DNA of 64,000 nucleotides from Escherichia coli (GTDB lineage Bacteria; Pseudomonadota; Gammaproteobacteria; Enterobacterales; Enterobacteriaceae), in the NCBI RefSeq assembly GCF_050320075.1, contig NZ_CP190018.1. One strand, written 5' to 3'. Of this stretch, positions 49,101 to 52,100 are shown in pieces; positions within the stretch are counted from its first letter, which is position 1; each line of letters starts with the position of its first letter. Made by a program: the position numbers.

Positions 49101-52100
49101 CATTTCCGACCTCACATGTGCTCAATGCCATCAGGGATGGTGTAAAACGTTGGATGGCGATAGACCTTGCTTTCAGCCGGATCAAAAAATTCACCGCGTT
49201 CTTCCGGTTGCGAGGCAACAATTTCACTCGCCTTCACCACCCAAATTGAACATCCTTCGCTACGACGGGTATAAGCATCACGGGCATTTTCCAGTGCCAT
49301 CCGCTCATCGGCAGCATGTAAACTGCCAACATGGCGGTGTGATAAGCCCTGTTTGCCACGCACGAAAACTTCGTATAACGGCCAGTAAACATTACTCATT
49401 TTGAAACTCCTTATGCGACCTTACAGGCATGTTGTTTTTGTGCATGGGCCAGCGCAGCTTCCCGTACCCAGGTACCTTCTTCCCAGGCTTTACGTTTGGC
49501 GTCGAGCCGCTCCTGATTACAAATTCCGCGACCGTTTATCACTTCGTTAAACTCCTGCCAGTCGATCTCACCAAAGCGGTAGTGACCGCTTTCAGTATCA
49601 AAATGCAGATCCGGGTCAGGAACGGTCATACCGAGCATTTCAACCTGTGGAACGGTGTTATCCACGAAACGCTGGCGGAGTTCGTCGTTGGTGAAACGTT
49701 TGATTTTCCAGGCGAGACTTCTGGCGCTGTTTGGCGAGTTATCATCGTTTGGCCCGAACATCATTAAGGCTGGCCACCAGAAACGGTTAATGGCGTCTTG
49801 CAACATCTGCTTTTGAGCTTCGCTGCCCTGCGCCAGTGCCATGCAGGCTTCAAACCCCTGACGCTGGTGAAAACTCTCTTCTTTGCAGATTTTCACCATT
49901 GCTCTGGCATACGGGCCATAAGAAGTGCGGCATAACGCCACCTGATTGACGATCGCTGCGCCATCCACCAGCCAGCCGATAACACCGATATCAGCCCAAC
50001 TCAATGTCGGATAATTAAAGATGGAGGAATATTTCATCCGTCCGTCGAGCATTTTTTGGTAGATGTCTTCTCTGGCGCAGCCCAGTGTTTCGGCGGCGCT
50101 ATAGAGATACAGACCATGACCTGCTTCATCCTGCACTTTGGCCAACAGAATGGCTTTACGCCGTAAGGTTGGTGCGCGAGTGATCCAGTTACCTTCAGGC
50201 AACATACCAACAATCTCGGAGTGCGCATGCTGCCCAATCTGGCGGATCAATGTCTTTCGGTAAGCATCGGGCATCCAGTCCTGCGGCTCGATAGCCGTTT
50301 CCTGGGCTATCCGTTGCTCAAAGCGTTCTTCTTGGGTCACGTCATCACCTTTACGATTCCAGTTTTCGTGATTCAATCAAAAACACGAATCACATTGTTT
50401 TATGAAAGTTACACAGTGGTTAACTAAAATCACAAATTTTGTATATTTGAACTGTGACGGATTTCGCACCCTATTTTTATAAATCATTATTTATCAGTGT
50501 ATTAATGTTTTTCGCAGTTGCTATACAGATCGCACAGTTAACATTTCGTTAAAAGACCACTTGCTTTTTATGATTCGCGATTTAACTATTAGCAACGGAA
50601 ATGTGAAACATCTGGAGAGTAGCGATGCAGCAGTTAGCCAGTTTCTTATCCGGTACCTGGCAGTCTGGCCGGGGCCGTAGCCGTTTGATTCACCACGCTA
50701 TTAGCGGCGAGGCGTTATGGGAAGTGACCAGTGAAGGTCTTGATATGGCGGCTGCCCGCCAGTTTGCCATTGAAAAAGGTGCCCCCGCCCTCCGCGCGAT
50801 GACCTTTATCGAACGTGCGGCGATGCTTAAAGCGGTCGCTAAACATCTGCTGAGTGAAAAAGAGCGTTTCTATGCTCTTTCTGCACAAACAGGCGCAACG
50901 CGGGCAGATAGTTGGGTTGATATTGAAGGCGGTATTGGGACGTTATTTACTTACGCCAGCCTCGGTGGCCGGGAGCTGCCTGACGATACGCTGTGGCCGG
51001 AAGATGAATTGATCCCCTTATCGAAAGAAGGTGGATTTGCCGCGCGCCATGTACTGACCTCGAAGTCAGGTGTGGCGGTGCATATTAACGCCTTTAACTT
51101 CCCCTGCTGGGGAATGCTGGAAAAGCTGGCACCAACGTGGCTGGGCGGAATGCCAGCCATCATAAAACCAGCTACCGCGACGGCCCAACTGACTCAGGCG
51201 ATGGTGAAATCAATTGTCGATAGTGGTCTTGTTCCCGAAGGCGCAATTAGTCTGATCTGCGGTAGTGCGGGCGACCTTTTGGATCATCTGGACAGCCAGG
51301 ATGTGGTGACTTTCACGGGGTCCGCGACGACCGGACAGATGCTGCGAGTTCAGCCAAATATCGTTGCCAAATCTATCCCCTTCACTATGGAAGCTGATTC
51401 CCTGAACTGCTGCGTACTGGGCGAAGATGTCACCCCAGATCAACCGGAGTTTGCGCTGTTTATTCGTGAAGTTGTGCGTGAGATGACCACAAAAGCCGGG
51501 CAAAAATGTACGGCAATCCGGCGGATTATTGTGCCGCAAGTATTGGTTAATGCTGTCAGTGACGCTCTGGTTGCGCGATTACAGAAAGTCGTGGTCGGTG
51601 ATCCTGCGCAGGAAGGCGTGAAAATGGGCGCACTGGTAAATGCTGAGCAGCGTGCCGATGTGCAGGAAAAAGTGAACACATTGCTGGCTGCAGGATGCGA
51701 GATTCGCCTCGGTGGTCAGGCGGATTTATCTGCTGCGGGTGCCTTCTTCCCGCCAACCTTATTGTACTGTCCGCAGCCGGATGAAACACCGGCGGTACAT
51801 GCAACAGAAGCCTTTGGCCCTGTCGCAACGCTAATGCCAGCACAAAACCAACAACATGCTCTGCAACTGGCTTGTGCAGGCGGCGGTAGCCTTGCGGGAA
51901 CGCTGGTGACGGCTGATCCGCAAATAGCGCGTCAGTTTATTGCCGACGCGGCACGTACGCATGGGCGAATTCAGATCCTCAATGAAGAATCGGCAAAAGA
52001 ATCCACCGGGCATGGCTCCCCACTGCCACAACTGGTACATGGTGGGCCTGGTCGCGCAGGAGGCGGTGAAGAATTAGGTGGTTTACGGGCGGTGAAACAT

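Follow-up and report, generated by a model that had tools for sequence, protein, structure and literature searches.

Which sequences in the divergent paaA/paaZ control region of this Escherichia coli would be bound by the repressor PaaX, and which of the half-site-like hexamers found there belong together? We addressed this in a 64-kb stretch of DNA (64,000 nucleotides), hereafter the window. PaaX, its half-site, and its action at the promoters Pa, Pz, and Px are already known and were described between 2000 and 2014: the protein represses Pa, Pz, and its own promoter Px, the inducer is phenylacetyl-CoA, and in E. coli it binds TGATTC(N27)GAATCA (PMC9493321). In vitro binding of PaaX and its release by phenylacetyl-CoA also belong to the literature on the paa locus (PMC9493321; PMC4498308). 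The main value of our analysis lies in a correct annotation with exact window coordinates for three operators, and in a warning that what looks like a perfect palindrome in one strain can turn out to be a polymorphism within a tolerant spacer.

The paaA/paaZ locus

Gene coordinates were carried over from the RefSeq annotation of a genome identical to the window; the 801 bp around the paaA/paaZ region have 100% identity to several complete genomes. In that annotation, paaB-K, paaX, and paaY lie downstream of paaA. PaaA, PaaZ, and PaaX were confirmed by NCBIfam equivalog models.

49411-50340, minus strand: paaA, with a GTG start codon (RefSeq annotation of the identical genome and NCBIfam equivalog)
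50344-50352: ribosome-binding site of paaA, AAAGGTGAT
50625-52670, plus strand: paaZ (RefSeq annotation of the identical genome and NCBIfam equivalog)
39778-40728, minus strand: paaX, the cognate repressor gene (TIGR02277 PaaX equivalog, 410 bits; cutoff 264.55)

The paaA-K operon and paaZ diverge from a 284-bp gap (50341-50624, 33% G+C), as the original prediction had it, and both the annotation of the identical genome and the equivalog models agree with this. The paaX gene in the window is intact, and its product matches the E. coli PaaX structure (PDB: 8A39) with an E-value of 1e-205. We consider it very probable that this is the divergent Pa/Pz control region already known from the phenylacetate (paa) cluster of E. 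coli, with PaaX operators whose half-sites are 26 to 28 bp apart. It is the same locus as the Pa/Pz PaaX operators of E. coli W (Ferrandez, Garcia and Diaz 2000, J Biol Chem 275:12214; cited in PMC9493321). The window differs from the E. coli W operators by polymorphisms only; two 15-bp boxes and the four outer half-sites, described below, are identical in the window, E. coli W, and K-12, and the intergenic region as a whole is ~95% identical to that of K-12.

Within E. coli, 50341-50624 is unusually polymorphic. Of 5426 complete genomes, 3131 carry the paa region (three copies are plasmid-borne), and the intergenic sequence is at least 99% identical to the window in 142 of the 3131, 95-99% identical in 2007, and 90-95% identical in 982.

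Three predicted PaaX operators

Scanning the 64-kb window for TGATTC-N26..28-GAATCA with at most one mismatch returned exactly three matches, against ~0.7 expected by chance, and these lie in the promoter regions Pa, Pz, and Px.

50354-50392, minus strand: predicted Pa operator, TGATTC (50392-50387)-N27-GAATCG (50359-50354) on the paaA strand
50354-50359, minus strand: proximal half-site of Pa, reading GAATCG along the paaA strand; its end lies 13 nt from the paaA GTG, and it adjoins the ribosome-binding site
50571-50610, plus strand: predicted Pz operator, TGATTC (50571-76)-N28-GAAACA (50605-10)
40730-40767, minus strand: predicted Px operator upstream of paaX, TGATTC (40767-62)-N26-GAATCG (40735-30)

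Each operator matches 11 of the 12 half-site bases, and the three sit upstream of paaA, paaZ, and paaX, with paaX itself present. The left half-site of the Px operator overlaps an extended -10-like element, TGcTATGAT, and a single nucleotide separates the operator from the paaX ATG. Judged from sequence, the predicted Pa, Pz, and Px sites show every feature of a PaaX operator with N26-28 spacing. The consensus TGATTC(N27)GAATCA was defined on the penicillin G acylase promoter by Kim et al. 2004 (as cited in PMC9493321); both the half-site and the ~27-bp spacing match at Pa (N27), Pz (N28), and Px (N26), each natural paa site having one mismatch in one half-site (GAATCG or GAAACA).

The original prediction had proposed three hexamers as PaaX sites, and sequence reading and pattern search found all three exactly: TGATTC at 50369-50374 (plus strand), GAATCA at 50387-50392 (plus strand, equal to TGATTC on the minus strand), and TGATTC at 50571-50576 (plus strand). 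Across the whole window, TGATTC is not enriched (39 found, 39.75 expected); three copies within 284 bp have P ~0.002 when the region itself is modelled as a first-order Markov chain. The recognition of TGATTC/GAATCA as the PaaX half-site is borne out by the site given in the review (PMC9493321), and the copy expected ~50 bp upstream of paaZ does lie 49-54 nt before the paaZ ATG (50571-76). Two of the three hexamers, 50387-92 and 50571-76, proved to be the cores of the Pa and Pz boxes; the third, 50369-74, falls in a non-conserved spacer. The pairing was wrong: the hexamers of the proposed TGATTC-N12-GAATCA unit (50369-50392) are present, but the true partner of 50387-92 is CGATTC at 50354-59, 27 bp off. 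Nor does that unit, at 29-52 nt from the paaA start codon on its upstream side, overlap the ribosome-binding site at 50344-50352; the half-site that adjoins this site, 50354-50359, is not part of the proposed unit. The partner half-site at Pz, GAAACA (50605-10, N28), had been missed.

A 15-bp box, WWTRTGATTCGYGWT, was reportedly defined by Ferrandez et al. in 2000 as indispensable for PaaX binding. It has only two exact matches in 64 kb, one in each of the divergent promoters.

50382-50396, minus strand: 15-bp PaaX box of Pa, AATGTGATTCGTGTT, containing the GAATCA at 50387-92 (fits the reported motif exactly)
50567-50581, plus strand: 15-bp PaaX box of Pz, TTTATGATTCGCGAT, flanked by the candidate -35 and -10 elements (fits the reported motif exactly)

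The IUPAC string of the box is exactly a merge of the Pa and Pz sequences, which agrees with the reported definition but also makes the match partly circular. A full-text literature search for the 15-bp motif string gave no match, and papers mentioning PaaX other than the review (PMC9493321) gave no operator coordinates.

Half-sites and spacing across Enterobacterales

A PaaX-based scan with one genome per species yielded 80 Enterobacterales loci, most of which reach into the paaA/paaZ intergenic region. At Pa, [T/C]GATTC ... GAATC[A/G] occurs in 55/55 distinct upstream sequences from other Enterobacterales, with N27 in 25 and N28 in 30. The distance from the proximal Pa half-site to the start codon is 12-15 nt in 54 of the 55 and 19 nt in the remaining one, and the spacer between the outer half-sites is hypervariable in these 55 distinct sequences. 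A conservation profile built on 36 complete intergenic regions gave the same picture: GATTC (50355-59) and GAATCAC (50387-93) are at least 95% conserved, and 50360-50385, which contains the 50369-74 hexamer, has no conservation. At Pz, TGATTC-N28-G[T/A]A[A/C]C[A/G] has constant spacing in 36/36 distinct sequences, and the 15-bp box is conserved across genera. At Px, an exact TGATTC-N26-GAATCA was found in 56 of 78 distinct sequences. The spacing of 26-28 bp is thus what is conserved, and any spacer sequence is tolerated. The right half-site of Pz is degenerate (GAAACA in E. coli, mostly GTAACA elsewhere) and could be conserved for another reason.

The Px arrangement is replaced in some genera. 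In Cedecea and Buttiauxella-type loci, the Px -10 region reads TGCTATGTTTT and lacks TGATTC (within the 110 nt upstream of paaX; L053, L054, L056-L060, L063, L065, L070, L072, L080), and GAATC(A/G)...TGATTT, in the opposite orientation, is located further upstream of paaX. It looks as though these loci have moved or redesigned the autoregulatory operator. Autoregulation of Px, the promoter of paaXY, by PaaX was described by Fernandez et al. 2014 (as cited in PMC9493321); the Cedecea and Buttiauxella-type loci depart from the TGATTC-N26-GAATCG arrangement of the window.

Two contigs carry unexpected labels. One, of 414 nt (L081), is labelled Pseudoalteromonas phenolica and codes for part of a PaaX with 99% identity to that of E. 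coli; the other (L030), labelled Chryseobacterium sp. 18061, has an Enterobacteriaceae-type paa cluster. Both are probably cases of contamination or mislabelling in public assemblies.

Additional half-site-like sequences in the Pa spacer

One of the three hexamers is not among the outer half-sites, and we followed its distribution within E. coli.

50369-50374, plus strand: extra TGATTC, allele-specific, inside the Pa spacer (E. coli allele comparison)

At this position, K-12 MG1655, E. coli W, and 7 other sampled alleles have TGAATT (TGATTT in one). E. coli W is said to be the strain of the original PaaX work. The four outer half-sites of Pa and Pz are invariant in 11 E. coli alleles and the spacer is variable; in the window allele, three substitutions in the Pa spacer create the extra TGATTC. 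A 51-nt allele-specific query (50345-50395) against 5426 complete genomes retrieved the window allele from 158 of them, that is, from 158 of the 3131 that carry the paa region. The N12 palindrome is therefore a minority polymorphism, which excludes it as the operator that was defined in W or K-12. Its arms are 12 bp apart and not the ~27 (26-28) bp of a PaaX operator, and its left arm has no conservation across genera. We rejected TGATTC-N12-GAATCA as an operator on its spacing and on the missing left arm in K-12 and W, and the hexamer at 50369-74 is probably, by these sequence comparisons, not part of the operator.

Pa spacers of other genera contain extra elements of their own. In 23 of the 55 distinct Pa operators, an extra GAAT precedes the proximal GAATCA by 10-12 bp (start to start), against a shuffle mean of 1.2 in a statistic that ignores shared ancestry (L012, L022, L026, L027, L029-L034, L036, L039, L041-L043, L045-L047, L052, L057, L063, L073, L077). 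It is located ~25-35 nt upstream of paaA and is spread over at least four spacer-similarity clusters. In several Pluralibacter-like loci, the extra GAAT and the distal half-site form a perfect TGATTCAC/GTGAATCA repeat. Neither K-12 nor W has the extra GAAT.

In these 23 of 55 operators, an auxiliary GAAT(C) thus stands upstream of the proximal half-site at a distance of one helical turn; in the minority E. coli allele of the window, it is 15 bp upstream. The Pa operator might on this account be tripartite in many Enterobacterales, with the spacer GAAT(C) providing a third contact for PaaX and adjusting occupancy or cooperativity; we regard this as unlikely. It concerns the one promoter, Pa, at which PaaX would repress from downstream of the transcription start, and if it were true, repression would be altered in carriers of the window allele, a naturally occurring variant.

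For the window allele itself, the corresponding proposal is that TGATTC at 50369-74 acts as a functional third PaaX half-site, either as an N12 operator or through extra cooperative occupancy at Pa, which would change the strength of repression in ~5% of paa-positive E. coli. The 64-kb window contains this N12 inverted repeat only once, without mismatch, and the probability of TGATTC arising by chance in the 36 nt adjoining a true half-site is ~1.3%. Half-site-like extras also recur at Pa, both as the GAAT described above and as an exact GAATCA inside the Pa spacer in 8 of 55 sequences (0.43 expected), although these enrichments, too, ignore shared ancestry. Against this, PaaX regulation was established in strains of the kind that lack the hexamer, as K-12, W, and 7 other alleles do; the hexamer, 15 bp away from the proximal half-site and with its centre 18 bp from that of the distal one, is out of helical phase; its 15-bp offset differs from the 10-12 bp of other genera; and related sequences in the E. 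coli/Citrobacter group decay to AAATCA, AAATCG, and AATTCA. A third half-site in the window allele is accordingly quite improbable to us, and we retain the reading of Pa as a pair of outer half-sites with N27 spacing.

Candidate promoter elements and proposed repression

Candidate core promoters were placed around the predicted operators.

50561-50589, plus strand: candidate Pz core promoter, -35 TTGCTT (50561-66), 17-nt spacer, -10 AACTAT (50584-89)
50406-50435, minus strand: candidate Pa core promoter, -35 TTGTGA (50435-30), 18-nt spacer, -10 TAACTT (50411-06)
50453-50468, plus strand: CRP-like site, TGTGAcggattTCGCA, one mismatch to TGTGA-N6-TCACA
50492-50504, plus strand: match to the IHF consensus, TATCAGtgtaTTA, exact to WATCARNNNNTTR, a weak candidate

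At Pz, 33-35 of 36 sequences retain TTG(A/C)(T/A)T, the 17-nt spacer, and AACTAT; at Pa, conservation across genera extends to AAAGTTACA and the -35 region. A simple sigma-70 scan called neither candidate promoter, its only two plus-strand calls matching no conserved block, so the elements rest on conservation and geometry. The two halves of the CRP-like site do not vary within E. coli and are conserved from genus to genus. We infer a Pa transcription start near 50399, which would place the Pa operator at ~+8 to +46 and, only if this start holds, would centre the CRP-like site, with its one mismatch, at -61.5. CRP reportedly acts at Pa, as attributed to Ferrandez et al. in 2000. Matches to the IHF consensus are not enriched (8 found, 5.5 expected), and the one at 50492-504 is not conserved across genera. 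Two further blocks were noted in the region: GATCGCAcaGTTAAcatttcgTTAAAAg, upstream of the Pz -35 (50526-50556), is conserved across the 36 Enterobacterales intergenic regions, and Pa contains a conserved GTTAAC (50419-50424).

The operator positions, the spacing, the conservation, and the allele distribution come from the sequences themselves. With PaaX binding and induction taken from the literature, and promoters and transcription starts taken from the literature or placed as above, the following mode of repression is proposed. PaaX would bind two inverted 6-bp half-sites, TGATTC and GAATCA, 26-28 bp apart, so that their centres are 33-34 bp, or roughly three helical turns, from each other. 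Without inducer, the protein would occupy the operators at Pa, Pz, and Px, competing with RNA polymerase at Pz and Px and acting by a different mechanism at Pa, as reviewed (PMC9493321), and phenylacetyl-CoA would, following the literature, release it from the DNA. At Pz, the left half-site would lie between the candidate -35 and -10 elements, at Px, the operator would overlap the -10 region of the paaXY promoter, and at Pa, it would lie downstream of the transcription start; the CRP-like site at 50453-68 may add catabolite control at Pa. The geometry so deduced at the three promoters matches the distinction drawn in the review between polymerase competition at Px and Pz and another mode at Pa. 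For Px in particular, TGATTC-N26-GAATCG over a -10-like element fits the reported competition between PaaX and RNA polymerase (Fernandez et al. 2014, as cited in PMC9493321).

The position of the Pa operator also raises the alternative that the inverted repeats work as an RNA hairpin in the paaA 5' leader, affecting mRNA stability or translation, and not as protein operators. The Pa operator would indeed be transcribed if it spans ~+8 to +46, and the outer half-sites pair in the minimum-free-energy fold. Yet the five leaders folded are no more stable than shuffled sequences (z = -0.45, 0.02, -1.06, -0.44, and -1.52), there is no Rfam match, the spacers are without a compensatory pattern, and the same pair of half-sites is found in non-transcribed promoter DNA at Pz and Px. 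A paaA leader hairpin, rejected for its folding no better than shuffles and its lack of an Rfam match, is extremely unlikely, and protein operators bound by PaaX remain our reading of the repeats.

Comparison with other repressors and the paaK-paaX junction

An analogous phenylacetyl-CoA-responsive repressor, the TetR-type PaaR of Burkholderia, acts at the paaA and paaZ promoters (PMC2770484). It belongs to an unrelated family and has a compact palindrome, ACCGACCGGTCGGT (PMC2770484), whereas PaaX has widely spaced half-sites. The PaaX-DNA complex is unsolved (PMC9493321), and the PDB contains only 8A39 for PaaX, with nothing indicating bound DNA; because of this, the cross-genus footprint, in which spacing and not spacer sequence is conserved, is relevant.

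The stretch from the paaK end to the Px operator contains a G+C-rich inverted repeat, CTGGCCCTGG...CCAGGGCCAG (40789-40820, minus strand). It looks like a terminator or a REP-like hairpin that separates paaA-K from paaXY, and other genera have different G+C-rich palindromes in the same place.
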